From the NCBI GenBank assembly GCA_000004695.1, contig CM000152.2, positions 5,312,001-5,376,000 of the forward strand: a DNA stretch of 64,000 nt, read 5' to 3'. This document shows, piece after piece, positions 2,939 to 27,806 of this stretch. Position numbers and translations under genes: made by a program. This stretch comes from Dictyostelium discoideum (lineage: Eukaryota). A model generated the notes under the pieces. The model worked only from the letters and a program-made list of their open reading frames with translations, was not told the origin of the DNA and did no database searches. Each line of letters opens with the position of its first letter. Position 1 is the first letter of the stretch.

Positions 2939-5427
2939 TTATTTATTTTTAATTGGATTTAATTTGGAGTCTACCATTTTTTTAATTTCATAGTCTTGAT
3001 CAATAAAACAAGGTAATTGAGATTTTTCAAAATTGATTGCTTTTTTAAACCATTCTTTACTTTGTTCTAAATCATTATTCATAATATAAATCAAAGAGAT
3101 AAAATAAGATAATTCAGGTACTTTATAAGTGAACTCTTCTTTTATACTTTTATCAATATATGATTTAAATATTTGAATGATACCATTACAATCAGATTCT
3201 GAAATTGAACCACAATAAAATCTATTTACACCTTTATAATATAAATATTTTAATGGATAATCAAGTTCACCATCGCCACTATTACATGATTCAATGATTG
3301 AATTAAAATGTAATTGTGCAGATTTTGGATCATTATTTAATCTAAAATTCATTGCACGATAAAAAATGAATTCTAATTCATTTGGGAACTGTTTAATTGA
3401 ATCATTAATGAATTGATTAAAATTTGAAATTGGTTTTCTAATTGTTAAACATAATAATACTAATCTTGCATTTTTAATATCGTCTTCATTAACTTTATTA
3501 TTATTATTATTATTATTATTGGTTGTTGAATTATCAATAAACTTAATTAAACTATTAATAATTAAATTCTCTTTTGTTAATGGTATTCTAATTGAATGAT
3601 ATTCTAATTTTAATGCTTCAATTAAAATTTTATTTGCTTGAGTTAATTTTTCAATGTTATTATCATTAATATAATTTTCAAATAAACTAAGGAATTGATT
3701 CTTTAAATCCAATGTTTTAATTAATCTATTAATTTGTTTCTTTGAACCTTTATTCAATCTTTTAATTGAATTATATTCATATTGTTTAATTTCAAAATCA
3801 TATCTATCATCATTTTGAATCTTTTCATTCATTCTTTTACTTTGAATCTCTTCAATTGATTCACTATTACCAATTGTTTTAAATGTTTTATTTAAATCTT
3901 TACCTGTAAGTAAACAATATAATTTTTGACATTTTAAATTACCACTTTAATAATAATAATAATAAAATTAGTATATAATAATAATATATATTAAACTTAA
4001 TAAATTTGTACACTTACACAGAAGAACCTTTTAAAAGCATTGGTAAAATTATAGTATCCAAGATTGGTTTTGGTATATTTCTATTTGGAAAACTAAACAT
4101 AAATGCTAAAGTTGTTAAATGAAAACAATTTGAATTAAATAATGTGAATTGCTTTGTAACTAAACCAAAATAATATAAAGCACAAACATTATCAGCATCA
4201 AGATAACCACAACCATTGAAATATCTATAACCAATCTCTAATAGTATATTTGTAAATGTTGAATAAAATCTCTTTTTTTCAATTTCATTATAAGTTTCTA
4301 ATGGTTTTAATAATGATCCATTATATAATAAATCCATTGATAATTTATAATTATAAACTTTATTTAAACTATCATTACCATCGTTTGTATTAATATTATT
4401 ATAATCACTTAATTTTAATGATAATTCGTAAATTTTATCAATATCATTACTATTAATAATTGATTGAAATTCTAATGGAATTGGATTACTTTTAACATAT
4501 TCAATTGCTTTTAATTCGAAATTATCCATTTCCTTTTCTTGTTTTTCTTTTTCTTTTTTTTCTTTTTCTTGTTTTAAAGATTTCTCTAAAATTGTTGATT
4601 GTAATTGTTTATATTTTTCATTGTTAATTGAATCATTTGTTGATAATAATAATATTGCAATTTCTAAATGATTTAATGCTAAATTATAAAATGAATTATT
4701 ATTTTTACAAAGTAAAAATGCAATTTCATAATAACATTCAGAATTGAATGGATCATATGATAATGAATACTTTAATTTGTCAAGTGATATTAAATCTTTG
4801 TATTCCAATGTAACGATTTCATTATCAATACTATTTTTCGATTCGGTTAATTCTTTATAAATTTCATAATCACATCTTGATGATCCTAAATATCCAAATG
4901 ATTTAATTTTAAATAATTTTGATTCATCACCATAATCACCACCATCATCATTATTATCATTATTATTATTATTATCAATATCGATATTTTTACATAAAAT
5001 TAATTTTGAATTATAATATTCTAATGATTCTTTGAATTTTCTATTTTTAAATAATTCATTTGATTCGTTTATTAATTTTTTTGTAAATTCTTGATTTTCA
5101 TCAAATTCTTTATTACCACCATTGATAATTTGTCTAACTCTTTCTTTTGTGAAATATCCTTTATTTGAATTATTTAAAATTTCAATATTTTCTAATAATA
5201 ATTTTTTAATATTTTCAAATGTATCTATTTTATCTATATATATATATATGTTTTTTGAAAATTAAAATTTTATTAATTTATTTATAATTAATATATATAT
5301 CTTTTGGTAATTGAATGTGTATGATTAATTAAACTTACTATTTCTATCAATTAATTTTATAATTTCAATTGCTTTATTTTCAATTATTAGTTGTTGAGCA
5401 GACGGTAATGTTGATTTATTTTTATTA

Positions 5428-5512
<85 letters not shown>

Positions 5513-5726
5513 TACTTAATAATAATTCAGAAGTTGAAGCAATTTGCCAAATACCATTTTTATTTATATTTTGAATTTGTGCTACCTCTAATTGTTTTAA
5601 GTATGATTTATTGGTAAATTGAGTTTTATTTCTATTTTTATAGGTATCCTTTAAAACGTGTGAACCTATATTGAGTAAACTTAATAATTGATAATCTTTA
5701 AAAATCTCTAATTCTTCAATATTCAT
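2939..5726 (-). CDS. Three-exon gene for a TPR/Sel1-like helical-repeat protein (hypothetical). Exon 1 is 5726 to about 5342, exon 2 about 5235 to about 4018, exon 3 about 3905 (or 3863) to 2939 with stop.
   Basis: ATG at 5726. GTAAGT donor lies inside the codons AAT A|GTAAGT just before the ORF-track stop at 5325. Acceptor ...atatag|AT restores an open frame that runs uninterrupted into the 264-aa ORF, whose track 'M' is a TTG. A second GTAAGT donor sits at 4017-4012 overlapping the TAA, and acceptors at 3905 or 3864 lead into the 297-aa ORF. TPR-like motifs present: FKNRKFKESLEYYNSKLILC, AQLHFNSIIESCNSGDGELDYPLKYLYYKG. Confidence 0.6.
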
Positions 5727-6370
5727 CCTCGTTGTATTTAATTATGTTTTTTTATGAAAAACGAACGAACGTGGTGGGGGAATTTTATGAAAATTAAATT
5801 TTATGTAAAAAGAAATTTTATTAAAAAATGAAAAGTTGGTGTAAAAATTTTTATTTTTTTATTTTTTTTATTTTTTTATTTTTTTTTTATTTTTTATTTT
5901 TTTATTTTTATTTGGGTTTATAACTTAACTATTAATTATCCATTTAAAAACTTTTTAATAAAAGAATAAGATTTCATTTAGTCAAAAAAGGAAAAATTAA
6001 AAAAAAAAAGTTAGAATAAATAAAAAAAAAAAAAAAGAGAAAAAAAAAAATTTAAAAATAAAAAAAAAAAGAGAAAAAAAAAAAAAAAAAATTTAATAAA
6101 GATAAAAACTAAAGTTTTATTTTATTTATTTGTGTCTTAATGTTGTATAATCAACATAAAACACCTTTACCCCAACCACATTGGAAGCATGTATTTCTTT
6201 AACATCTGAAATGTTGTAGTTTTCGGGGTATTCGTATTCTACAACTAAGTCAGATACTTCTTCTTTTAAATTTTTTTTTTTCTCTTTTTTTTTTTATTTA
6301 TTTTATAACTTTTTTTTTTTAATTTTTCCTTTTTTTTGACTACCAACTTTTCATTTTTTCATAAAATTTA

Positions 6371-6422
<52 letters not shown>

Positions 6423-6806
6423 ACACGATGGTCTTATGATTTTCACAATAATTTTTTTATGAAAAATAATATCAAAAATAAAAAAAATTAAATAATTGAT
6501 AGTTATATATTATTATAAACACATTTTTTATTTTTTTTTTTAAAAAGAAATTTTACAATTTTTACAATTTTTTTCAAAATCTAATTTAATAAATTGTTAA
6601 ATTAAATTACAATAAATGTGATAATTGATCGGTTTAATTAATTATTGTCAACTCTAAAATGAATAGGTATAAAGAATATTTCTGAATATATTATTTAAAA
6701 ATGTTTTTTAAAAAAAAAAAAAAAAAAAAAACTATAAATTAAAATTTTTTTTTTTTTTTTTTCATCAATTCAAATTAAAAATCATTAAATTGTATTAATT
6801 AATAAA

Positions 6807-7082
6807 ATGTCACTCTTTAGTAAGTAATTTTTAAAAATAATAAAAATAAAAAATTGACATTTAATTAATTTCTTTTTTTTTTTTTTTTTTATTTTAAAAA
6901 AAATAGAATCAATATCATCAATTTCAAAAGTTAACACTACATCTGCTAACAGTACCGTAACGTCATCCCAATTAAATAACCAATCATTTGGTGAAAACAA
7001 AATTTCTGCTGATCTTGTTACTGGTCTTGTCAGTGGATTATTATTTGGTCTTGCAAATGTAACACAAGGTTTGGGTCTTTAA
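6807..7082 (+). CDS. Small two-exon gene, 62 aa, hssA/2C/7E-like family. Exon 1 is 6807-6819, intron 6820-6906, exon 2 6907-7082.
   Basis: ATGTCACTCTTTA|GTAAGT ... aaaatag|AATCAATATC. Spliced product MSLFKSISSISKVNTTSANSTVTSSQLNNQSFGENKISADLVTGLVSGLLFGLANVTQGLGL*. Family resemblance (ISSIS.. N-terminus) is from memory only. Confidence 0.6.
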
Positions 7083-7204
7083 AAAAAAAAGAACAAAACT
7101 TTCACACCAATTTTTTAATTTATAAAAAAAAAATAAAAATGATATAGTTTAAATAACAATATATTTTTTTTCATTTTTATATTATTTTATTTTATTTTAT
7201 TTTA

Positions 7205-7235
<31 letters not shown>

Positions 7236-7633
7236 AATTATTTTTTCTTTTTTTTTTTTTTCTAATTATACTTAGTTTTATAAAAATTAAAAATCATATG
7301 ATTGTTCACAGACAGAATTGTTGTGATCGAAAGATTTGTGGGGAAAATTTTTTTAAAATCGTTGTAACCACTTTTTTAAACAAGTTTTTCCCATTATTTT
7401 TTTTTTTTTTATTTTTATTTTTTTTTACTAAATTTTTCAAAACAATCTACAAAATTAATTCTAATTCTTTACATATTTTTTTATTAATTAATTATTAATT
7501 ACATAGTAATTTAATTAAAAAATAAAATAAAAAAACATATAAAAGGAAATTGAAAAAAAAAAAAATTAAAGATATCAAACAAATAAAAACTTTAAAGTCA
7601 ATAAACCATAAAAATCAAAAAATCAAAACTAAA

Positions 7634-7904
7634 ATGTCTCTCTTTAGTAAATATCTTTAAAAAATTTAAAAAAAAAAATGATTAAATAGTTTATTTTATT
7701 AATTTTTTTTTTTAAAACAAAATAGAATCAATCTCATCAATTTCAAAAGTTAACACTACCTCTGCCAACAGTACTGTAACACCATCCAAATTAAATGATA
7801 ACCAATCATTTGGTGAAAATCAAGTTTCAACTGGTATTGTTAGTGGAATTGTCAGTGGATTATTATTTGATCTTGCAAATGTAACAAAAGGTTTAGGTCT
7901 TTAA
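7634..7904 (+). CDS. Tandem paralog of the previous small gene, 63 aa. Exon 1 is 7634-7646, intron 7647-7725 with GTAAAT donor, exon 2 7726-7904.
   Basis: About 85% identical exon structure and sequence to 6807-7082. Product MSLFKSISSISKVNTTSANSTVTPSKLNDNQSFGENQVSTGIVSGIVSGLLFDLANVTKGLGL*. Confidence 0.6.
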
Positions 7905-8047
7905 AAAAAAAATAATAATAAAACCAATATCATTCTTATTATCTTTTTTTTTAAAAAAAAAAAAAAACACTAAAATTAAAAAATAAATAAATAGAATCCC
8001 TTTAGAAACATTCTATATATAAATTATTTATATTATTATTTTTATTA

Positions 8048-9192
8048 TTATTTTCCAGATATTAATGGTGATGAAATTGTGGGTGATAAAGAATCAGAAG
8101 ATGTTGGTGGTGTACCACTACTTGATGACGATGAATCTGATGATGATGGAAATTCTGTATTTGTATTTGATGATGAAGATGATTCAATATTATTATTACT
8201 ATTATTACTATCATTATTTTGCATATATCTTTTATTTGCAGCCAATAAAATTCTTTTTCTTCTTTCATCTTCATTTTCATTTGATATAATTGGAGAATTA
8301 GTATTACTACCACTAGCACTACTACTACTTGTATCATTATCAGAACCATAAAAATTTAACCTACTACTTCCATCTTTATTATAATTGTCATCTGGTATAT
8401 AAATTGGCTTTGGACCACTATCATCTGCTAATGAATGTCCTTTACCTGAAAATGGTATTGTTGTACTACTACTACTATTATTACTACTTTTACCTTTACT
8501 ATCTACACTATTTGATGCTGATTCTTGTGGTATAAATCCAAATGATTTAGGTAAAAGACATGAAAAAAAGGTTCCTATAAATGCTAATCTATTTATATAA
8601 TTTGGAATTTCTCTATTTAATAATCTCTTTATTAATTCATTTGAGAATGTATTACAATTTCTTTTTTTTTTTTAAATAAAATAAAATAAAATTTAATTAG
8701 AAGAGAAAAAAATGAAAATGAAAATAAAAATAAAAATAAAAATAAAAATAAAAATAATATTATACTTTTTTAAAGGGTGGTAAGATTTACCAGGGAATTC
8801 TTCAGCAATATTATCAATTAATGATTGAATTTGTCTTTCTGATAATGTTACATCACCCATATATAATGATTCTCTAAATACAACACCTGTTGCTGTTTTT
8901 GGTTTTATTTCATATACACCACTAAAACTCCATTCATGTCCACTAAATCCAATTTCATTACCATTTATTTCAACTGCTGAATGAAATAATCCAACACCCA
9001 AACAATGTCCAAAATTATTTACTTTATAAAGTTATTTTTTTTTATTTTTTTTATTATAATAAATTATTTGATTAGTCTCTATTTAACAGTAATAATAAAT
9101 TAAATAATAAACATACTTGGATGTAAATCATATATATTTAAATAAACCTTTGTAATGTTTGGTCCTCTATTATTTATTGGTTTTAAATTCAT
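8048..9192 (-). CDS. DeSI/PPPDE-family deSUMOylating isopeptidase (PPPDE peptidase domain). Exon 1 is 9192-9117, exon 2 9021-8766, exon 3 8660-8048.
   Basis: MNLKPINNRGPNITKVYLNIYDLHP|...GVGLFHSAVEINGNEIGFSGHEWSFSGVYEIKPKTATGVVFRESLYMGDVTL...EEFPGKSYHPLKK|NCNTFSNELIKRLLNREIPNYINRLAFIG matches the DESI2/PPPDE1 domain. Donors GTATGT (9116) and GTATAAT (8765), acceptors ..aaag|TA and ..aaaaag|A, keep frame. Ser-rich tail with stop at 8048. Confidence 0.8.
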
Positions 9193-9302
9193 TTTTTTAT
9201 ATTTCTCTACTTTTTAATTTAAATAAATACATATACATATAAACATTAACAATGTGGTTTTTTGTTTTTATTTTTCTTTTTTTATTTTTTTTTTTTTGGT
9301 GT

Positions 9303-9336
<34 letters not shown>

Positions 9337-9662
9337 GTGTGTAAATTGTCTTTTTTTTTTTTTAAATTATGATGGTTTTTTATTAATATTTGAAAAAGAT
9401 GACGATTAGAAAAAACGACTGTTTGAATATTTTCAAATAATCATAAATATCTTCATTTTTTTTTTTTTTTTACAATTTTTCCATATTTTCATTTTTTAAT
9501 AAAAAAAAATAGAAAATTGTTTGGTTTACAATCAAATTTTTTTATTTTAAAATTGTCTATTTTTTTTTTTTTTTGAATTTGGTAACTTAGAAGTATACTC
9601 AGAATTTAAATTTAATATTTAAAGCAGGTTAATTTTGGTAAATAATGAAAAATTTCAACTAA

Positions 9663-9734
9663 TCCTCATTGGTGTAGTCGGTAACACTCTAGTCTCTCAC
9701 ACTGGTACCCCGGGTTCGATTCCCGGATGGGGAG
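9663..9734 (+). tRNA. tRNA-Glu (anticodon CUC)
   Basis: 72 nt. Acceptor stem TCCTCAT/ATGGGGA, D-arm GTGT-AGTCGGTAA-CACT, anticodon loop CT-CTC-AC, T-arm CCGGGTTCGATTCCCGG. Followed by T-run cttttttttt (Pol III terminator). Confidence 0.85.
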
Positions 9735-9772
9735 CTTTTTTTTATCAAAAAAATTTTAGATTACAGGTTCGA

Positions 9773-9785
9773 CTCCTTCATTAAT
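9773..9785 (+). promoter_or_regulatory. External B box (exB) about 40 bp downstream of tRNA-Glu
   Basis: aGGTTCGACTCC matches the B-box consensus GGTTCGANTCC outside the tRNA. Known peculiarity of Dictyostelium tRNA genes. Confidence 0.6.
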
Positions 9786-9789
9786 TATC

Positions 9790-10271
9790 CCAAAGGTTGT
9801 GAGAATTCAAATTAAAAATTAAGGAATATTACTCTACATTAAAGACCCACATATACCCAAAACAGAATTTCAAAAAGATCTATTCTTAAGAGGATATAGC
9901 TACAATCAACTATTCCCAAACATATTGAAGATAAGAAATCCGAACAAATTATTTTAATAATTTTAATATTACAAATATTAGAGAATCTTCATTAACTTTT
10001 AATTCAATTATTAATAATAATACCAATTCAATAATTTTAAATCCATTATGTAATACAAATATGATTAATGATCCATATGGCCATCTATTCTTTGATTGTC
10101 TTAAAACAAAATCATATATTAATGCATCCAAACTTAAAGAATTCATCTTCAAATCAACAGGAGGAAAAAATAATTGGTTACACGAAAGAACTACCAAAAA
10201 CAACAAAACAATAAACAAAATCACACCTATTACCTTCCAACAATAATTAAAAAAAAAAAAAAAAAAAAAAA
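9790..10271 (+). mobile_element. Possible 5'-truncated non-LTR (TRE3-type?) retroelement 3' fragment ending in oligo(A), downstream of tRNA-Glu
   Basis: Composition shifts to C/A-rich non-coding sequence from about 55 bp downstream of the tRNA and ends in a 25-nt A-run (10247-10271). No intact ORF. Placement matches the downstream-of-tRNA niche of TRE3 elements. Confidence 0.3.
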
Positions 10272-10859
10272 ATAACAAATCAAAATACAACAATATAACC
10301 AATTGTTACTATTCAAATAATTAAAATAAAATAAAATAAAATAAACATTATTATTGCAGAAGGTCTAACCCTTAGCAATTAATTAATTAATAACTAAAAA
10401 AAAAAAAAAATTCACATCATAATTAAAATTCAAAAATAAAATTGTAAATTATTGTTTATTCCATTTGGATAAACACTGGTTAACCGATTTTTTTTATATA
10501 AAAAAATCATAGTCTGCTCACGAATTTAGGTGACCTAACTTAACCTTGCAAGTTTTTTTTTAATTGCTAATATTTTTAAAATTTACAGTGCAAAAAATAA
10601 TAATACATAAAAATAAAAATTAAAAAAAATGGGAAAAAAAAACAACAATCTTATAATTTTTTTTTTAAATGGACAATATGTAAATCTTTAAAGATTTAAT
10701 CATAATAATTTATTATAATATTAGTTTAAAAATACTTTCTTGATGCCGACCGTTTCTTTATCATTTTATCTAATTAATCAGTATTTCTTTTCAGGCGACT
10801 GATTATTTGATTCTCTACCAGTAGTTCTTTTAAGGAGACTGGAAATTTCTTAATTCTAT

Positions 10860-11420
10860 TCATTTTAGTATCTATCCATGAATTTTTATTTGAACCAATT
10901 TACTTTACCATTATCAATAATTTCCAAACATTTTAGTATCCATTTTTATTACTATTTTTAGTTTTATAACTATTTCCAATCTGTAAAATATATTAATAGC
11001 AACCTTTCTTTATAATATTAAAACAATAATTTCTAAACATTTTAGTATCTATCCATATTTCAACCATATAAACTATTTCCAATTTCATTTTAGTATCTAT
11101 CCATTTATTACCATAATTTCAACTATTTCCAATTTGTAAAAATATTTAATATTACCACACAGTACATTTTAATTTGTTACTTTAACCAAATTCCAACCAT
11201 TTTTTAAACTATTTCCAATTTTTTAAAATTGATTGCTACCAATTAACAAATTATTATAACAACTTGTTTAATAGTAATGGTAATATAACAAGATTTCTTG
11301 AAATTTTAATATCTACCCACAAACATTTAAACCATTTTCTAATACTACTGGCCAAAATATTTAATATCAATCCATAACTATATTTACAAATTATTCAAAA
11401 TATTCTTTGATTTGGTAGTT
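10860..11420. repeat. Complex degenerate repeat block. Motifs cattttagtatctatccat (4x) and aactatttccaat (4x) are interspersed.
   Basis: Direct read. No ORF; likely decayed mobile-element sequence. Confidence 0.6.
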
Positions 11421-11508
11421 CATTGACATTATCCCAACAATGATTTATAAGTCCAAAACCAAAAAAATGAGATAGCCCCATAAACGTTACAAGTAACGGA
11501 GAAAATTA

Positions 11509-11803
11509 GGACTTTGTTCCACAGGACGATTTGAGATTAAAGAAAAACACTTATTTGGATTTGGTTCCACTGGGATGATTTGAGATTAAAGAAAAACATA
11601 AATTTGGATTTGGTTCCACAGGACGATTTGAGGTTAAATAAAAACACTAATTTGGACTTTGTTCCACAGGACGATTTAAGATTAAAGAACAACATTAATT
11701 TGGACTTTGTTCCACAGGACGATTTGAGATTAAAGAAAAACTCTAACATGGACTTTGTTTTACAAGGATGACACGAGATTAAAGAAAAACATTAATTTAT
11801 ATA
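11509..11803. repeat. Minisatellite of 6 tandem units of about 48 bp. Consensus ggactttgttccacaggacgatttgagattaaagaaaaacattaattt.
   Basis: Six head-to-tail copies with 85-95% identity. ORFs 11537..11749(-) and 11580..11771(+) are repeat artefacts. Confidence 0.85.
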
Positions 11804-12596
11804 GAACATTCGGGGCAAACAATAGTTTTATTACTTGTGAAACTGAAAAAATAACAAAGAATCTATGGGAATTAATAGTAGCAACCAATTGGTATACCAA
11901 TTAAAAGCAAAGTAAATGGATCATTTGCAAAAAATGGTCTTGGATAACGAAAAAATCAAAAGCATCCAACTTTGAAAATACCTACAACTAATTGGTATAC
12001 CATATTCATTAACATCCAAAGTAAACAAAATCATTTGCAAACGTGGAAATTGAAAAAAAGCAAAAAAAAGAAAAACAACCACCTACGGACAAGGAAAGGT
12101 CAATGAGTAAGACATTGACCACCTGCTTAAAAAATTTGTAGTATCCATAATAATTATTATATGTGTATTTAAAAAAAAAAATATTTAACAACATTACATT
12201 TACCATTAAGCTTTAAAGTTTGGGCGAAACTATTGAAAAACAATTGAGAGATCTTTGAAAACTATGGAAAATTCAATAAAAAAAAATCTTTAACGAAACA
12301 GAAGAATTCTATGAAAACACCTGAATACTTACAAACAGGTTACACTATTGAAATTCAAATAAAGTAAAAAATTAAACTTGAAAAATAGATTGTAACAATG
12401 AATTGAAGATTTCCAAAAAAAAAAAAAATATATTCAAAATAATAAAAAGGGTTAATCCAACACCACTATGTATATACCAAAACTATTATATATTTTTTAT
12501 AATTATTATTATTATTGTTATTATTATTATTAATAATATTATTATTTTAAAAAAATTAAAAATCACTAAAAAAAAAAAAAATATAAAGAGGTTATT

Positions 12597-12634
<38 letters not shown>

Positions 12635-12867
12635 AATTCTTGTTAATAATATTACCTTTAAAAAAAATTATTTATTCTTTATTTCTCTCAATTGTTAAAA
12701 AAAATGAATTAGTTAATATTTATCCACTTGATTTAAATTGGAACCGACATTTTAATATAGTTTATCTTTTTTTTTTTTTTTTTTTTTCTTTTTATATATT
12801 TATTTATTTATTTTTTAAAAATTAATGAACATTTTAGATAACAGTGGATTTTTTTTTTGTTTGTTTG

Positions 12868-13016
<149 letters not shown>

Positions 13017-13919
13017 TTTAATTTATTATTATTATTATTATTTATTTTATTTTATTTTTATTGAATAGTGAAATGAAAAAATCTATTTATACTTTTTTTT
13101 TTTTTAAAAGAAAATGAAAAATGTCTTTTATTTTTTATTTTTTATTTTATTTTTATTTTTATTTTATTTTTTTTTTTAAAAAAAAAAGGTAATTTTTCTA
13201 TTTTTGGAAAATTTTGTTTTTGGAAGGGGTTTAAAAAAAAACAAAAAATAATTTGGATCTTTTTTAAATAAAAAAAAGGTTTTTATTTTTACTTAATTTA
13301 GGAAAATCGCATATTGACATTCAGGAAGAAAATTTCAAGGCTTTTGGTTTTTTTTTTTTATAAAAAAGGTTTTTTTTTTTTTTATTTTTTTTTTTCAAAG
13401 AAAATTATTTAAGGAAATTTCTATTAAAAGTTAAAATTAATATTTTCATTATTATTATAGATGTTTTAGAATAATGTTTTTTTTTTATAAAAATTAACAG
13501 GGTTTTCAAAAAAAATTAAAAGATACATAAAAAACATTCAAGTTTGAGCATTTTTCGAAATTTAAAAATCTAAATAAATGTTTCAATAACAAAATGTGTA
13601 TGTAATATTGTTTTTGAGTTATTATAGCTTAAACAAATTGATCCACAATTACTCTAATTGATACAGCAGTCGTTGATTATTTGATTTTTAATATTTTAAT
13701 TTGTTTAATGTATTTGATTTTGTTGAAAATTTTTTATTATATTAGGCAGTCCAAGGTTGCATATGTATATCATTTTTTGAGAATATGGTAGTCTATTATT
13801 GTGTCTTGAATTTTGTCATCACTGTAGAGTGATTGTGCAAATATTAATTCTTTTAAAAATGTCTCCTATCAACACAAGAATTGAACATGCGACTATATAT
13901 TTACAAGAATAAAAATATT

Positions 13920-13990
13920 TGCGTATGCCGGGAATCGAACCCGGTTCAACTGCTTGGAAGGCAGCTATCATACCACTAGACCACATACGC
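13920..13990 (-). tRNA. tRNA-Gly (anticodon UCC)
   Basis: Reverse complement GCGTATGTGGTCTAGTGGTATGATAGCTGCCTTCCAAGCAGTTGAACCGGGTTCGATTCCCGGCATACGCA. Anticodon loop CT-TCC-AA. Near-identical to canonical eukaryotic tRNA-Gly-TCC. T-run follows on the minus strand. Degenerate exB-like GTTCAATTC about 30 bp downstream. Confidence 0.85.
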
Positions 13991-14466
13991 TTTGTTGATG
14001 ATAATTTAGGGTAAATGCTCGAATAAATTTTAATTATAATTTGTAATTTTTTAGTTATTTATTTTTATATAGAAGCAAAAATAAAGATTTTGTTCAGCAA
14101 AATTAAAGATTTTGTTCAACAAAATTAATATATTTAACCAGATATTCTAGATCTAGAATAATACCACCACGATCAGCGATGTATATTAGTCAACAATAAT
14201 TAAAAACAAAAAAAAAAAAAAAAACTCCTTGTTATCCAAACAAGGTTTGTAAATAAAATTTTAAAACAATTGGATCAAATTCAAAAAATATATATTTTAA
14301 TTAAATTTTATTAATCAACAAATATATTTATGTGGTATAATATATTACCTTCCACAGTTTCATCTCTACATAATTTTCCTAATTTTTCGCTTGTCTAAAT
14401 AAATAATTATTGAAAATGAATAGAAAGTTAGTTATTAAATATTTATTTTGATTATTAATTTTTCAT

Positions 14467-16458
<1,992 letters not shown>

Positions 16459-21095: not shown

Positions 21096-21540
21096 TTCTT
21101 TGTATTGTTTTAAAAAAAAAAATAATAATAAAAATTGGTGGTAGCCATATCAGACATCCTTATACAAAAAAAAAAAAATGGTTTAGATATTAATTAATGA
21201 AACTTGGGTCTTAAGCAATAATAGTTTAAGTTTTTTTATTTTTTTTATTTTACCTCAAGGTAAAATACACCTTTTGATTTGTGAATTATTGGGTATTATT
21301 TCTGGGTTTTTAGAGTGATTTTTGGTTTGGACTCTTTTGAGTGGTTTGATTGGTGTTTGGTATTTTTAGGTTGATGTGGGGTTAACTATAGCTAAGAGGA
21401 CCCTCTCCACCACCTTACAAATCTCTTTTAATCCGAAAATAACCAAAATTATAAAAAAATAAAATTAGTTTTGATTAATGCTTTATAGAATTCATATAAT
21501 ATTAATTGTGTTTCATTTTTTAATTATCAATTATTCAACA

Positions 21541-21551
21541 GGAATCGAACC
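21541..21551 (-). promoter_or_regulatory. exB box downstream of tRNA-Ser copy 1
   Basis: ggaatcgaacc is GGTTCGATTCC on the minus strand, about 30 bp past the tRNA 3' end. Confidence 0.6.
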
Positions 21552-21580
21552 TCTGATCTAATTTAGTTCTGTAAAAAGAT

Positions 21581-21661
21581 CGACACCTGCAGGGTTCGAA
21601 CCTGCGCCTCCGAAGAGAACGCCTTAGCAGGGCGCCGCATTAACCACTTTGCTAAGGTGTC
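21581..21661 (-). tRNA. tRNA-Ser (anticodon GCU), copy 1
   Basis: Minus strand GACACCTTAGCAAAGTGGTTAATGCGGCGCCCTGCTAAGGCGTTCTCTTCGGAGGCGCAGGTTCGAACCCTGCAGGTGTCG. 81 nt with long variable arm, anticodon loop CT-GCT-AA, A box TAGCAAAGTGG, B box GGTTCGAACCC. Confidence 0.85.
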
Positions 21662-22846
21662 ATCACAAAAGTTTTGTTTGACTCACTTTATTAAAATGTC
21701 ATCTCAAACTATTTGGGGTGATACACTTTGCTTAGGTGTCACCGTGACAACAACATCAAACTCAACCTTCAATTCAAACAAATTATCCAGAACAACAACA
21801 ACCAAAATTAACACAATTAACATCAATTGAGATCTCTGCAAACTTGATTTTAGTAAATTTCTCTAAAATTTTATTTTTTTTACTTTTTTTTTCCTAGAAA
21901 TTAATTTTCAAATTTTTTTTTTTTACCTTGGAGGTTACCAAGATTTATTTTTTGTAACCTTCCAGTTTTTTTGAGTTTTTTTGAGTTTTTTTTATTTTTT
22001 ATTTTTTTTTTTTCTTAGTGTGTGTTGTTATAAAACAAATGTGTTCATATTTGTTTTAATTTTCCTCTCTTTTTTTTTTTAGTGTTTATTTATTTTTATT
22101 TTGTGTTCATTCTAACCAAGTCAAATATAAAAAGAAAAGAAAAAAAAAAAAAAGAAAGAAATAGAAAAAAAGAAAAGAAAAGAAAAGAAAAGAAAGAAAT
22201 AGAAAAAAAGAATAAAAATAATAATAAAAAAACTTTACAAATCATGTGAAAATAATAATAATAGTAATAAATCTGCTTTTATAAATTTTTTTTATTAAAT
22301 TTAAATAAAAAAAACAAATTAAGAATATATTTTTTTTGTTTTATTTTTAATTTTGAAATTTCATTTGATTTTTTCTCAAATAAAAGTAAATTATTTTTAT
22401 TTAAAATTAATTATTTGTTATCGAATAAAAAAAAAATTTAATTCAAAATAAATGAAAGTGACAATTCAAATTTATTATTTTTAAATTTAGTTTATTTTTA
22501 AAATTTACTTTTATAAACATTAAAAAGACTTGTTTTCAATTCAATGTAAAAATTTTCAATAAAAAAAACATTCATAATAAATTTTAGATATTGTCGATAA
22601 CATCAACTTATTATTTAAAAATAATCATGTTAAAAATTTTAATGTCTATTAAATATTTATTTTATTGATGACCTCACTACTTTCAAAATTTAATGCAGTA
22701 AATGGAGATCGAAGTAATAAACAAACAATCTATAAAAAATCTTGTTCAGGTTTGTTAATCTTGTTAATTCGTATTTTAATTTAAAATAATATATTTGATT
22801 AATTATTTTTATTATTTAATACTTCCCTCAGAACATTTATCTACAT

Positions 22847-22885
<39 letters not shown>

Positions 22886-23079
22886 TGGATTAACAAGATT
22901 GATATATGTCCATCTGTGTTAATACGAGTTTTATTTAATATTTATTTAAAGGCTTATCATTTAAGCTGAAGGGTTATTTTAATCATATGAATTGATCAAA
23001 AGATATAATATTTGGGAGAGATGATTCTGGTCTACATAATGGTGATGTTTTTGTATTATTTATTTATTTTTTTACAACA

Positions 23080-23090
23080 GGAGTCGAACC
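23080..23090 (-). promoter_or_regulatory. exB box downstream of tRNA-Ser copy 2
   Basis: ggagtcgaacc is GGTTCGACTCC on the minus strand, 32 bp past the tRNA 3' end. Confidence 0.6.
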
Positions 23091-23121
23091 TGTTATTATG
23101 TTTTGAATTTTGGAAAAATTT

Positions 23122-23202
23122 CGACACCTGCAGGGTTCGAACCTGCGCCTCCGAAGAGAACGCCTTAGCAGGGCGCCGCATTAACCACTTTGCTAAGGTG
23201 TC
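23122..23202 (-). tRNA. tRNA-Ser (GCU), copy 2
   Basis: Identical 81-nt sequence to copy 1. Confidence 0.85.
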
Positions 23203-23250
23203 ATCGAAAATAAAATGGGAGATACACTTTCCTAAGGTGTCATTGAATCA

Positions 23251-23527
23251 AAAAATAATCAGATCGAAAAAAACAAACAACAACAACAATCTCTTTTTTT
23301 GATTATTTCATTTTTCATATAAAAAAGACTTAAAAAACAAATAAATAAATAAATAAACTATTTTAAAAAGCCATCTTTTTACTTTATTGTAATTTATTAT
23401 TTGTTTCGTTTTGAGAATTTTGCGTAGCAAAATTTTCAAAAAAAAAGCAAAAAATAATCAGATCGAAAAAAACAAACAACAACAACAATCTCTTTTTTTG
23501 ATTATTTCATTTTTCATATAAAAAAGA

Positions 23528-23535
<8 letters not shown>
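23251..23535 (+). repeat. Two 86-bp direct repeats (23251-23336 and 23450-23535) flanking a 113-bp spacer, followed by a 44-nt poly(A) (23531-23574). Begins exactly 48 bp upstream of tRNA-Ser copy 2.
   Basis: aaaaataatcagatcgaaaaaaacaaacaacaacaacaatctctttttttgattatttcatttttcatataaaaaagacttaaaaaa occurs twice. Position is the canonical TRE5 integration distance. May be TRE5 5'-terminal A-module-like repeats or an independent insertion. Confidence 0.5.
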
Positions 23536-23574
<39 letters not shown>

Positions 23575-23578
<4 letters not shown>

Positions 23579-25280
23579 GGAACCAAGTTAATTAGAAAAT
23601 TTCCAGATTTTTAACTTTTTAAAGAAAAATAAAAAAGATAGAAAGAAAATAAAATGAAAATCCCAAACAACACCCCAAATATTAAGCAACACAAATGCCT
23701 ACAAAAAATAAGCGAAATTGTGGATAAAACTCAATTAAAAAAAAAACAATTCAAATACGTCATAAACATCAATCACGAACCAGACGATAAAATAAAAAAA
23801 GATTTAGAAAAAAGTTTGGACAAAAAAGATGTTTTAATCAAAAGTAATAATACATTCAAAATTCTCACAGACAGTATTAGTACAGTAATCTATTTTGTAA
23901 ATATGTTTGATGCAGAATTAAAAGGACAATTTATAACCACTATAAGACCAAAAAATATGTATACAGATTTTGATTGGTATAAATCACTCACAGAAATAGA
24001 ATGGGTAATAGAAAATGAAGGATGTAAACTAATTAAATCAGAAATTAAAGGCGAAACTCTAATTATCAAAACAGTGAAAAGAGTCGTAGAAGAATTTGAC
24101 ACTATCATTGAACTAGACAATCTAACATTAATTGGACACTCCAACAAAGGATGGAGAGATCAAACCTCATTACCAGAAAATCAAGAAGAAAACAAAAATA
24201 AAAAACAATCAGATGAACAACAACCACAATCTACATCAGAACAAATACCAAAACAAGGAAAAAGAACAATCATTATCCCACCAATCACATCCTCATCTAA
24301 TGATAAAACATTTATGGCCCTAGATGATACAGCTCAAAAGGTAATAGAAGCATCACTAGAAAACGTAGATGAACTAACAAGAATAGAGAATGAGATCAAT
24401 ACACAATCGATAAACAATCAAGAAATTAAAACAAAATCAGAAAAACCTATCGAACCACCATCTCCATACAATACACCAATAAAACAACACGGCGAAACAA
24501 AGGGACTAACAACGGAAGAAAAACTTAGAGAGGCAAATGATATCTTCGACTTCACCAGCCCAAACACTGATGCAATAAGAAAAATAGAATTCCCACTTTC
24601 AATCCCTTCAAATCAATGGTTCTTCTCCTCTCCAATAAAACATATCATGAGTTTCAGCCCAACCTATGGGCACCATCGAAAATTATCGATTCACCAAGTA
24701 AATTGTTAAACACACCAAAAAAGAAACAACAAGACAAAACAAACAAGACCAACAAAACACCAGTCAAACCAAAATTGGGTGAATATGGACAAAAAAGCAT
24801 AAAAACAAAAATGGATGAAGATATAGACAACTTCAACAAGGAAATTCTAAAACAAATCAATAAATCAAAAAACCCCACAAACACACAAGACCAACAACAC
24901 AACGAACAAAGTAAAGATCAGTTAGAAGACAAAATAAACCAGAAACTTCAAAAGGTAGATAAAAATCTACCCCAAATAAAACTATAAAGAAAAACACAAT
25001 AAGAATAGGTGTTTGGAACGTCCAAGGATCCAACACCATCCAATCTGCCAGCATAATAAACACCGTTTTAGACAACAACAAGCTGGACGCAGCACTTCTA
25101 ACTGAAACAAATATAAAAACAAATAAAATTTACTCAATAAATCAACAATATAAAAACAAAATAACACACCACGCACCAATTGATAAAACAGGACAAGGGG
25201 TGTCACAAATCATCATCAACACCCGCAATAGAACTTCCTAAACATCTCAAAAAATACAATAATTCACTCAGTACTTTTTA

Positions 25281-25340
<60 letters not shown>
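23575..25340 (+). mobile_element. TRE5-type non-LTR retrotransposon fragment. Short 5' leader, ORF1 (23654-24709, continuing after a +1 frameshift to 24987, about 445 aa total), the start of the ORF2 endonuclease domain (about 25000-25250), then a 60-nt poly(A) 25275-25340.
   Basis: ORF1 MKIPNNTPNIKQHKCLQKISEIVDKTQLKKKQFKYVININHEPDDK... ORF2 begins RIGVWNVQGSNTIQSASIINTVLDNNKLDAALLTETNIK, an APE-like IGxWNVxG motif. Location and orientation relative to the tRNA-Ser genes match TRE5 (DRE-like) elements. Assignment to the TRE5 family is from recalled knowledge. Confidence 0.6.
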
Positions 25341-25341
<1 letters not shown>

Positions 25342-25665
25342 CAAGTTAATCAGAAAAATAAAAAAGATAGAAAGAAAATAAAATGAAAATCACAAACAAC
25401 ACCACAAATATTAAGCAACACAAATGCCTACAAAAAATAAGCGAAATTGTGGATAAAACTCAATTAAAAAAAAAACAATTCAAATACGTCATAAACATCA
25501 ATCACGAACCAGACGATAAAATAAAAAAAGATTTAGAAAAAAGTTTGGACAAAAAAGATGTTTTAATCAAAAAGACCCTGTAAAAAAAAAAAAAAAATAA
25601 AATGAGATCTAGCATCTCAAGGAGAAGCAAATAATAATTGCGTTATCCAATTCAAAAAAAAAAAA
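25341..25665 (+). mobile_element. Second, internally deleted TRE5-type copy. 5' leader plus the first 65 codons of ORF1 (25383-25577) are joined directly to a 78-bp 3'-terminal module and oligo(A).
   Basis: Leader and ORF1 start are over 95% identical to 23589-23850. Junction atcaaaaag|accctgtaaaa. 3' module ...tgagatctagcatctcaaggagaagcaaataataattgcgttatccaattc(A)13 is identical to the mini-element at 27501-27590. Confidence 0.6.
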
Positions 25666-25968
25666 AGGTGTCATTGAATAAAATGGGATGATACACTTTG
25701 CTAAGATGTCATCGAAAACCAAATGGGTAATACACTTTGCTAAGCTGTCATCGAAAACCAAATGGGTAATACACTTTGTTAAGGTGTCATCGAAAACCAA
25801 CGGGTGATACACTTTGCTAATCTGTCATCGAAAAATATTTGGGTGGTAAACTTTGCTAAGGTGTCCACACAAAATATTTGGGTGATACACTTTGCTAAGG
25901 TTTCGTCGAAAAATATTTGGGTGATACACTTCGCTAAGGTGTCATTGAAAAATAAACCACCACAAGAC
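25666..25968. repeat. Tandem array of about 7.5 units of 38-40 bp. Each unit holds the revcomp of the first 17 nt of tRNA-Ser (including the A box) plus its immediate 5' flank.
   Basis: Units such as gatgtcatcgaaaaccaaatgggtaatacactttgctaag repeat. The same unit is present in 1-2 copies directly upstream of each intact tRNA-Ser gene. No complete tRNA is attached to this array. Confidence 0.8.
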
Positions 25969-27311
25969 TAATTTTTTGATAAATAATTTTTTTTTTATAG
26001 TTTTTATTGTTTTTTTTATTTTTTTTAAGAAAATGTGGCTGAATAATAATTTTTGAAACTATATTAAAATAAAAAATAATTAAAAAAAATACAAAAAATA
26101 AAAATAATCAGTAAAGTGATTTATATTTTTAATTTATAAAAAAATATAAAAAAAATGAATATACATTCTGCAAACTCGATTTGACTCCATTTGGTTTCTA
26201 ATTGTCTTAAAAATTATTTTTTTTATTTTTCCTTTTTTTTTTTCTTAATTTTTTAAAAAATAACAATAAATCTTACCCTATCAAAATTGTTATTTTTTTT
26301 TCTATTTTAGGATTTATTACATATTTAATTAATATAATTACTTTATTACTATTGTATTTTACAGTTGTAGTTTTTTTTATATAAGATGGCTCGAGATGAG
26401 TAACTGGACTGTCTAATTTTAGGAATTTAAAAAAAAAAATAAAAACTATTCAGAGAACCCAATTTCATTTTTAATTTTTTTTTTTTTTTTAGGGAGTTTA
26501 ATTCAAGAACAATTATAAACCATTTTAACTAATAATAATATAAGTTTTTTTTTTTTTTTATAATATTTTATAATATAAGTTGTTTTTTTTATTTTATTTT
26601 ATTTTTTTAATTATAATTAAATTTGTTTTTGAAATGCAGTTTTATTTAAAAATTCTAAGGTTTTTTCAATAAACTTTATTGAAAAATTTAGGGGAGTTAT
26701 ATGGCCATATATTTTCCTTAATGTCATGGTGCATAGATAAATCTTTCCTTTCTCTGACTTTAGATTAATATTGATTATTTTTATTTCCCTTTGGATATGA
26801 TAGTATTGATATGAACATTGATGTTTTAATAATACACATTTTTCAGCATTTCTATTGTAAAACAACACTTCTATTTAATTTAATGTCACATTTCATCAAC
26901 ACCAATATTTAACTTAAATTTTTTTTTTTTTTTTTTTTTTTTTGATTTTTTTTTTTTTTATAATTTTATTTTAATTTTTTTATATAAAAAGATATAATTT
27001 TTTTTTTTCATTTTATTATTAATTTAAAAAGGTAAAAAAAAAAAAAAAACATTTAGTAAAAACTTTACTTAAATAATCATGTTAAAAATTAATATCTATT
27101 AAATATTTATTTTATTGATGACCTCATTAAATTCAAATTTTAATACAGTCAACGGAGATCGAAGTGCCTGTATCTTAAATTGTGCTCATTAACAAACAAT
27201 TTATATAAAATCTTGTTCAGATTTGTTTATCTTGTTAATTCGTTTTTTATTTTTGTTACTAACATACTATTGATCTACAAATAGTAATAGTAAGCATTTT
27301 ATTTTTTCCAA

Positions 27312-27322
27312 CAGGAATCGAA
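27312..27322 (-). promoter_or_regulatory. exB box downstream of tRNA-Ser copy 3
   Basis: ggaatcgaacc is GGTTCGATTCC on the minus strand. Confidence 0.6.
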
Positions 27323-27365
27323 CCTGTTATTCAGCTTTGAATGTTGGGAAATTTTTGCAAAATTT

Positions 27366-27446
27366 CGACACCTGCAGGGTTCGAACCTGCGCCTCCGAAG
27401 AGAACGCCTTAGCAGGGCGCCGCATTAACCACTTTGCTAAGGTGTC
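27366..27446 (-). tRNA. tRNA-Ser (GCU), copy 3
   Basis: Identical 81-nt sequence to copies 1 and 2. About 170 bp of 3' flank (27066-27245) is homologous to the flank of copy 2 (22605-22770), so these copies sit in a segmental duplication. Confidence 0.85.
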
Positions 27447-27493
27447 ATCCAAAACCAAATGGGAAATACACTTTGATAAGGTGTCATCGAAAA

Positions 27494-27590
27494 ATCCAAT
27501 GACCCTGTAAAAAAAAAATAAAATAAAATGAGATCTAGCATCTCAAGGAGAAGCAAATAATTGCGTTATCCAATTCAAAAAAAAAAAAAA
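27494..27590 (+). mobile_element. Mini TRE5-type element (3'-terminal module plus oligo(A) only, about 94 bp). Flanked by a 13-bp target-site duplication gtgtcatcgaaaa (27481-27493 and 27591-27603), inserted 48 bp upstream of tRNA-Ser copy 3.
   Basis: Sequence gaccctgtaaaaaaaaaataaaataaaatgagatctagcatctcaaggagaagcaaataattgcgttatccaattc(A)14 is identical to the 3' module at 25574-25665. A perfect direct repeat of the flank sits on both sides. Confidence 0.75.
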
Positions 27591-27806
27591 GTGTCATCGA
27601 AAACCAAATGGGTGATAAACTTTGCTAAGGCGTCATTGAAAAATATTTGGGTGATGATTTTTTGTGAAATTTCGGCTGGAAGATAAAGAATTGCTTCATA
27701 AAATTTTAAATAAAAATGCTTTATTACCATTAATTAAAATTATAAATAAATAAAACAAATTTCAAAATTTAAATATAATATTACACTTTATTATTTTTAT
27801 TTTTAT

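Follow-up and report, generated by a model that had tools for sequence, protein, structure and literature searches.

The external B box (exB) of tRNA genes, the retrotransposons TRE5-A (formerly named DRE), TRE5-A.2, TRE3 and DGLT-A, and the fixed distances at which these elements insert are all well described in Dictyostelium discoideum. The exB, a B-box core lying some tens of nucleotides (nt) beyond the gene, accompanies 66% of the D. discoideum tRNA genes at a distance of ~41 bp downstream according to one study (PMC3159450), and about 80% of them according to another (PMC5911963). TRE5-A integrates 47 ± 3 bp upstream of tRNA genes (PMC5391098), facing the opposite way and with a target-site duplication that varies, TRE3 inserts 40-150 bp downstream and in the same orientation as the gene (PMC5911963), and TRE5-A.2 has the architecture AB-ORF1-BC, in which the A-module measures 200 bp, a 290-bp B-module stands at either end, open reading frame (ORF) 2 is largely deleted and 72 bp are missing at the B/C junction (PMC3159450). 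Here, a 64,000-nt stretch of D. discoideum DNA (the window; G+C content, 22%) was analyzed around a cluster of three tRNA-Ser(GCU) genes, which lies on chromosome 3 of strain AX4 between a bZIP gene and a C2/RasGAP gene. The locus is known, annotated biology and a textbook example rather than a discovery: its 6 kb show D. discoideum tRNA genes multiplying by local duplication, with TRE5-A (at -47/-48 in three of three cases) and TRE3 (~90 nt downstream) homing to fixed distances from active RNA polymerase III (Pol III) genes. Taken as a whole, the structure is very probably the combined product of local DNA duplications, a 39-bp minisatellite that arose in place and tRNA-targeting retrotransposons. 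Only the minisatellite appears to be undescribed, a minor and probably neutral novelty.

Assignment to the AX4 reference followed from an ORF at 23654-24709 that is 100% identical to AX4 DDB_G0282051, an accession adjacent to that of the neighboring C2/RasGAP gene. An independent D. discoideum assembly (GCA_054883475.1; L007) matched the window with 99.5% identity over 14.2 kb, and the three tRNA-Ser genes, the repeat units and the retroelement all recur in it. Given the agreement of the AX4 match and this second assembly, the structure is real and already present in the reference genome.

Three tRNA-Ser(GCU) genes and their external B boxes

ARAGORN identified five tRNA genes in the window, three of which are tRNA-Ser(gct) genes on the minus strand: copy 1 at 21581-21661, copy 2 at 23122-23202 and copy 3 at 27366-27446. 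Isotype and gene status rest on ARAGORN together with Infernal searches against Rfam RF00005, where each copy scored 61.1 bits (gathering score, 29) and aligned to model positions 1-71 with standard pairs throughout its four stems and no non-canonical pair flagged. The variable region aligned with 10 inserted nt, which correspond to the long variable arm of a class II tRNA and bring the total to 81 nt. All three sequences are 100% identical, which confirms the initial annotation of this DNA as carrying three identical minus-strand tRNA-Ser(GCU) genes. The internal promoter of every copy, as read from the sequence, consists of an A box (TAGCAAAGTGG) and a B box (GGTTCGAACCC), and a T4-T5 run no more than 10 nt from the 3' end of each gene is a candidate Pol III terminator.

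The 11-mer GGTTCGANTCC occurs six times in the window (0 expected), and three of these occurrences are the external B boxes of the Ser genes, all on the minus strand. The exB of copy 1 (GGTTCGATTCC, 21541-21551) lies 29 nt past the tRNA 3' end, after a T5 run, that of copy 2 (GGTTCGACTCC, 23080-23090) 31 nt past it, and that of copy 3 (GGTTCGATTCC, 27314-27324) 41 nt past it, the wider spacing of copy 3 being due to a 10-nt indel. The perfect exB first noted at each copy was therefore recovered, but the range of 30-32 bp given for its distance does not hold for copy 3. Matches to the published core GTTCRAnYC (PMC3159450) numbered 15 in the window against 4.2 expected; 13 of them fall within the five tRNA genes or shortly past their 3' ends, and a downstream exB with this core was present at all five. 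TFIIIC may bind at these boxes. When compared to the exB-bearing tRNA genes of D. discoideum in general, the Ser triplet shows the same internal A and B boxes, T4-5 terminator and second B box 29-41 nt past the gene, without material difference; only the 41-nt spacing of copy 3 varies.

Duplication of the locus from one gene to three

Orthologous loci were fetched via the flanking C2/RasGAP gene, and the flanking genes were collinear. A single tRNA-Ser(GCU) gene was found in D. dimigraforme (L004) and D. firmibasis (L005), two genes were found in each of four assemblies labeled D. discoideum or D. cf. discoideum (L002, L003, L008 and L009; ~6-14% non-coding divergence), and three in both AX4 (the window) and GCA_054883475.1. 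Among the loci compared, three copies were thus seen only in AX4-type genomes. In D. purpureum (L006), no tRNA gene was present near the orthologous RasGAP gene, which is uninformative on the ancestral state because synteny has been lost. Copy 1 is of the type termed b here, as its 3' flank matches the single D. dimigraforme gene to which it is orthologous, and copies 2 and 3 both resemble the other (a-type) gene of the two-copy genomes.

The initial annotation had described ~170 bp of additional 3' flank shared by copies 2 and 3. This homology is real and comprises 60 nt through the exB (83% identity) and a block of ~185-190 bp, located on the minus strand at 22600-22790 for copy 2 (~190 bp) and at 27071-27253 for copy 3, with an identity of 79% when gaps are counted and 88-89% in ungapped stretches. 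Behind copy 2, the two parts are separated by a 182-bp retroelement insertion. The shared 3' flank is absent from copy 1; the ~185-bp block could not be aligned to any counterpart in L002 or L003, has no further copy in the window, and may be either a small mobile element or lineage-specific sequence. Low-stringency self-BLAST at this G+C content returned many spurious alignments of ~60% identity, which were disregarded. Spacer blocks 1 and 2 directly adjoin each other in L002, but in AX4 the array lies between them together with copy 2 and the flank of that copy, from which it follows that the third copy arose by a local, though not strictly tandem, segmental duplication of ~1 kb. The flanks of copies 2 and 3 are 79-87% identical yet the genes themselves are identical, which indicates that selection, or gene conversion, acts on the genes. 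The proposal that the cluster was remodeled by duplication is accordingly borne out by the progression from one to two to three genes across orthologous loci and by the derived 3' block shared by copies 2 and 3.

Two further features of the orthologous loci were observed. In D. cf. discoideum ACTFIY (L009:12019-16592), the segment with both tRNA-Ser genes is inverted relative to the flanking genes and has a Redoxin/AhpC gene in its spacer. In the D. firmibasis gene (L005:12411-12491), C5 and G68 are both replaced by T, producing a T-T mismatch in the acceptor stem that may reflect decay or an assembly error, or may be tolerated.

A 39-bp minisatellite and three retrotransposon insertions

A search with the 21-mer GACACCTTAGCAAAGTGTATC, allowing up to three mismatches, returned the three genes and 11 partial copies (pseudo-units), all on the minus strand and with 0 expected. 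Tandem Repeats Finder reported a 39-bp period with 7.5 copies and 82% matches at 25665-25956. Read in tRNA orientation, the 39-bp unit consists of GACACCTTAGCAAAGTG (tRNA nt 1-17) followed by TATCACCCAAATATTTTTCGAT, the latter being the same kind of 22 nt that is found directly 5' of each real gene. The array is in register with the genes, as the steps from 23202 to 23241 and from 27446 to 27485 both measure 39 nt. Copy 1 is preceded by two pseudo-5' units of 39-40 bp (21662-21740), the distal one with a single mismatch in 17 and the proximal one degenerate (12/17). Copy 2 has ~8.5 units, one directly upstream of the gene (23203-23241) and 7.5 displaced by a retrotransposon (25667-25956), and copy 3 has ~2.5, formed by a proximal unit and the start of the next (27447-27493; unit 27447-27485) and by ~1.5 distal units (27591-27653). 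The initial annotation had assigned one or two copies of a 5'-half repeat to each gene, a count that has to be replaced by an array of 39-bp period with 2, ~8.5 and ~2.5 units; 25665-25956 had been overlooked as the upstream array of copy 2, from which the retrotransposon has split it by 2.4 kb.

Within the AX4 units, the tRNA-derived 17 nt and the adjoining TATCACCC are 93% identical to the consensus compared to 77% for the remainder. The units stop at tRNA nt 17, without a B box, and the 3' end of the A box is altered (GTGT for GTGG); a tRNA model search of the array gave no match even at E ≤ 10. Judged on these features, the pseudo-units possess neither the pair of A and B boxes nor the cloverleaf-forming capacity expected of a Pol III promoter. 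In-register 5' repeats were absent from all six other tRNA loci inspected (Glu and Gly in the window, Gly and Glu of D. firmibasis in L005, Asp in L011 and Arg in L012). The only metagenome match to the unit core AGCAAAGTGTATCACCCAAA (L010) lies inside an unrelated coding sequence without a tRNA and was dismissed as a chance match. The array resembles ordinary minisatellites from partial gene duplication, and the tRNA arrays of Entamoeba histolytica, in being tandem and head-to-tail with a short unit, variable copy number, unit-to-unit homogenization and association with tRNA genes. In E. histolytica, however, whole tRNA genes are arrayed, whereas here only nt 1-17 and a 22-nt leader are repeated, in register with one intact gene. 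No description of in-register 5'-partial tRNA repeats in Dictyostelium was found in the literature searched, which did not extend to older subscription papers, including a 1991 survey of tRNA flanks.

Arrays of 39-bp units are also present in L002, L003 and L009, with another consensus (GACAACTTAGCAAAGTGTATCACCCAAAACTTTTGAGAT) and up to ~9 units, so that paralogues and genomes differ in unit number, within a range of 2 to ~9. In L003, all units but the outermost have an A at position 5 that is missing from the real gene, and this private variant indicates that units amplify from one another and not from the gene. Copy a of D. cf. discoideum ACTFIZ (L008:11900-11984) has a single, longer partial copy of tRNA nt 1-31 (25/31 identical) with a period of ~82 bp, in which ~51 nt of leader are repeated (about -51 to +31). 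The sister species D. dimigraforme and D. firmibasis showed only marginal traces of units (p about 0.03-0.04).

The largest insertion in the window, at 23249-25666 on the plus strand, is a non-autonomous element of 2418 bp with the features of TRE5-A.2, a non-long terminal repeat (LTR) retrotransposon. It separates the proximal unit of copy 2 from the distal array, faces the gene head-to-head with the 5' end of the element at -47, and has on its two sides the copies of a perfect target-site duplication of 13 bp (TSD; GGTGTCATTGAAT), of which the left one (23236-23248) starts in the distal end of the proximal unit and the right one (25667-25679) begins the displaced array. Its parts are, in order, an A-module of 199 bp (apparent as a repeat with 199-bp spacing at the 5' end), a partial second A-module, a B-module, ORF1, a short ORF2 stub of ~90 codons, a second B-module, the 3' part of the C-module and A13. 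The two B-modules (23575-23850 and 25352-25572; ~280 bp) are 99% identical, and homopolymer runs of A44 (23531-23574) and A53 (25287-25339) directly precede them. Hairpins of -17 to -18 kcal/mol at 22 °C are possible at the 3' end, ahead of the A13 tail. ORF1 (23654-24709) is 97-99% identical to at least ten AX4 paralogues, which at full length have 444 aa (51.4 kDa), and is interrupted by a frameshift near codon 340, after which ~100 further codons continue in another frame to 24987; no intact ORF1 protein can therefore come from this copy. Pfam searches returned nothing significant for ORF1 or the ORF2 stub.

At the B/C junction of a TRE5-A.1-type copy in L011, an additional 70 bp separate ...AATCAAAA from GACCCTG, and these are missing from both the window element and a copy in L012. 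Together with AB-ORF1-BC order, the large ORF2 deletion, the C-module hairpin, oligo(A), orientation opposite to the tRNA gene, the -47 position and the 13-bp TSD, this short junction is shared with known TRE5-A.2, from which the window element differs by its extra partial A-module and the frameshift in ORF1. The name TRE5-A.2 would thus apply on architecture and position, as database entries do not use "TRE5-A" and searches of papers for TRE5-A primer sequences or DDB_G identifiers found none tying the ORF to that name. For annotation, the 351-aa "hypothetical protein" DDB_G0282051 can be read as the frameshift-truncated ORF1 of TRE5-A.2.

An extremely 5'-truncated TRE5-A stub on the plus strand (27494-27590) interrupts the array of copy 3 at -48. 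It is composed of the 7 nt ATCCAAT, the 3' 76 bp of the C-module (27501-27576) and A14, and has its own 13-bp TSD (GTGTCATCGAAAA; left, 27481-27493; right, 27591-27603, at the start of the distal units). ATCCAAT was considered as a templated junction and rejected, since both TRE5-A.1 and TRE5-A.2 have other sequence there. The two TSD pairs match internally but differ from each other, which makes the insertions at copies 2 and 3 independent and rejects a single insertion predating the duplication that produced these copies. With the L012 element, which is at -48 of a tRNA-Arg gene (47 nt upstream in one of our counts) and has a TSD of ~14-15 bp, all three TRE5-A positions (-47, -48 and -48) fit the interval of 47 ± 3 bp. 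A TRE5-like element in D. cf. discoideum (L001; 65% identity in ORF1) has no tRNA gene within 6 kb and was uninformative.

Downstream of copy 2, the 182-bp insertion at 22849-23030 (minus strand) contains the 3'-terminal 150 bp of TRE3 and A32 (T32 on the plus strand). It has the orientation of the tRNA gene, starts 92 nt downstream of it and 50 nt past the exB, and is bounded by a 9-bp TSD (TCTACATAA) at 22840-22848 and 23031-23039. A full-length element in L011, with two ORFs (351 and 1059 aa, the second with RVT_1), matches the 150 unique bp of the insertion at its 3' end with 100% identity; that element begins 77 bp downstream of a tRNA-Asp gene, whose orientation it shares. L002 and L003 have an empty site at the orthologous position. 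Poly(A), TSD, orientation and a place within 40-150 bp downstream agree with what is published for TRE3, and only the last 150 bp of the family sequence are present. On these features, 22849-23030 can be annotated as a TRE3 tail, probably of subfamily TRE3-A, the most abundant member. As TRE5-A.2, the TRE5-A stub and the TRE3 3' end all have TSDs and canonical orientation, the remodeling by retroelements that had been proposed for the cluster, with no element named, was substantiated. Next to copy 1, a 69-nt stretch 60-128 nt downstream of the gene (21453-21521) is 87% identical to L011:14666-14734, the native 3' flank of an unrelated tRNA-Asp gene, and is possibly a remnant of an older element that would have targeted the downstream side of tRNA genes.

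Related genomes have insertions of the same kinds. In L002, a 142-bp solo LTR (11969-12110; TGTAATGAAT...GGTTATTACA; 4-bp duplication AAAC) is 93 nt upstream of copy a and exactly 13 nt upstream of a pseudo-unit (12123-12163) that has the real gene's AGTGGTTA. A related full-length LTR element at this locus terminates at the distance canonical for DGLT-A, 13 nt upstream of the real copy b. The solo LTR either predates the addition of units or targeted the pseudo-unit. In L003 (14838-14915) and L002 (14684-14730), a 47-bp stub of the TRE5-A C-module with a TSD of ~17 bp is found ~144 nt upstream of copy b. Its phase within the pseudo-unit is that of the AX4 insertions at -47, which suggests that the array gained units on the gene side of the insertion.

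Proposed history and alternative explanations

A history that would account for these observations starts from one Pol III gene with internal A and B boxes, a T-run terminator and an exB ~30-40 nt downstream. A first DNA-level duplication in the ancestor of the discoideum complex, flanks included, would have produced the a and b copies, and a second in the AX4 lineage copies 2 and 3, with a unit of ~1 kb that comprised array, gene, exB and ~400 bp of 3' flank. Purifying selection, possibly aided by gene conversion, would have kept the 81-nt genes identical as flanks drifted to about 79-87%. The 39-bp segment from -22 to +17 may have been duplicated in tandem in place, across the 5' boundary of the gene, and then expanded and contracted unit to unit, as in ordinary minisatellite turnover. 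Pol III complexes on the real genes would then have drawn tRNA-targeting retrotransposons by the mechanisms described in the literature: TRE5-A, thought to home on TFIIIB, may have arrived twice independently and head-to-head at -47/-48, and TRE3 ~90 nt downstream, beyond the exB and in the orientation of the gene. Several points weigh against this account. Slippage or unequal exchange as the origin of the array is a step that we infer. The solo LTR and TRE5-A stub of L002 and L003 are at the canonical phase relative to a pseudo-unit and not to the real gene, for which later gene-proximal addition of units or activity of pseudo-units is needed. The ~1-kb spacer between copies 2 and 3 (block 1) is itself not duplicated, requiring at least one further rearrangement. 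Lastly, copies 2 and 3 differ in their flanks about as much as AX4 differs from its two-copy relatives, a divergence so large that an older duplication followed by loss elsewhere could also explain it.

The 39-bp array is most likely neutral, and it would gain importance only if it were general among Pol III genes or functional in them; the evidence favors a local, neutral minisatellite. A function, be it A-box-like or TFIIIB-proximal tuning of Pol III initiation or a neutral landing pad kept by selection to absorb TRE5-A and DGLT-A, seems very unlikely. It would fit the better conservation of the 17 nt and TATCACCC, the presence of some 5'-partial copy in every discoideum-complex genome examined (including the 82-bp unit of L008), the location of all TRE5-A and DGLT-A-like insertions at Ser genes within the array, and the L002 solo LTR 13 nt upstream of a unit with a regained AGTGGTTA. 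However, that conservation might also come from recent amplification, or from conversion by the real gene; the marginal trace is the most that sister species show although they share the tRNA gene; unit number swings from 2 to about 9; A-box positions are substituted without an accompanying B box; six other tRNA loci lack such repeats; and for both TRE5-A insertions of AX4, it is the real gene and not a pseudo-unit that lies at the -47/-48 distance. Very unlikely, too, is an origin of the units as by-products of retrotransposon integration, in which long staggered cuts were filled with no or near-zero insert by abortive target-primed reverse transcription. The site is a proven hot spot of TRE5-A endonuclease nicking, three stubs of ~20-100 bp occur here and in relatives, and near-empty insertions do exist, such as the stub of 6 nt and an oligo(A) tail at copy b of L008. 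Against this, TRE5-A TSDs at these sites measure 13-15 bp and stop 34-36 nt before the gene, never reaching inside it, and the private variant of the L003 units points to amplification from unit to unit. Unit junctions also lack correctly placed oligo(A)/(T) or element nucleotides, the T-run being internal to the unit at -9 to -5; for this reason, the units were likewise rejected as long TSDs around an oligo(A)-only insert.

A less improbable, though still unlikely, alternative to neutral minisatellite turnover after a single event is that 5'-partial copies arise repeatedly from instability at the gene's Pol III initiation complex and are not a one-off accident. The end points of the units differ by lineage (-22 to +17 in AX4, L002/L003 and L009, about -51 to +31 in L008), which would fit recurrence, and new units formed next to the gene with its real 5' end as template would place the L002/L003 insertions whole units away from the gene. 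Were this correct, conflict between replication and transcription, or misrepair of TFIIIB/TFIIIC-bound DNA, at a tRNA gene would be naturally recorded in the arrays, and pseudo-units with a restored A box might redirect DGLT-A integration. That the three genes are retroposed, tRNA-derived copies resembling short interspersed nuclear elements, or pseudogenes, or that the triplication is an assembly artefact, is effectively refuted. The copies are identical and close to retroelements, but each forms a full-length cloverleaf (61.1 bits) without non-canonical pairs, homology continues into both flanks to take in the array on the 5' side and the exB on the 3' side, the gene ends lack poly(A), six other genomes have orthologues at the corresponding position, and the independent assembly repeats the whole structure at 99.5% identity.

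Elsewhere in the window, the 10 kb around the two remaining tRNA genes (4808-15035) contain no ORF of at least 150 aa. These genes, listed at 9663-9776 and 13878-13990, are a tRNA-Glu(CUC) gene on the plus strand with an exB 31 nt downstream and a tRNA-Gly(UCC) gene on the minus strand with a core-only exB (GTCGCATGTTCAATTC) 33 nt downstream.

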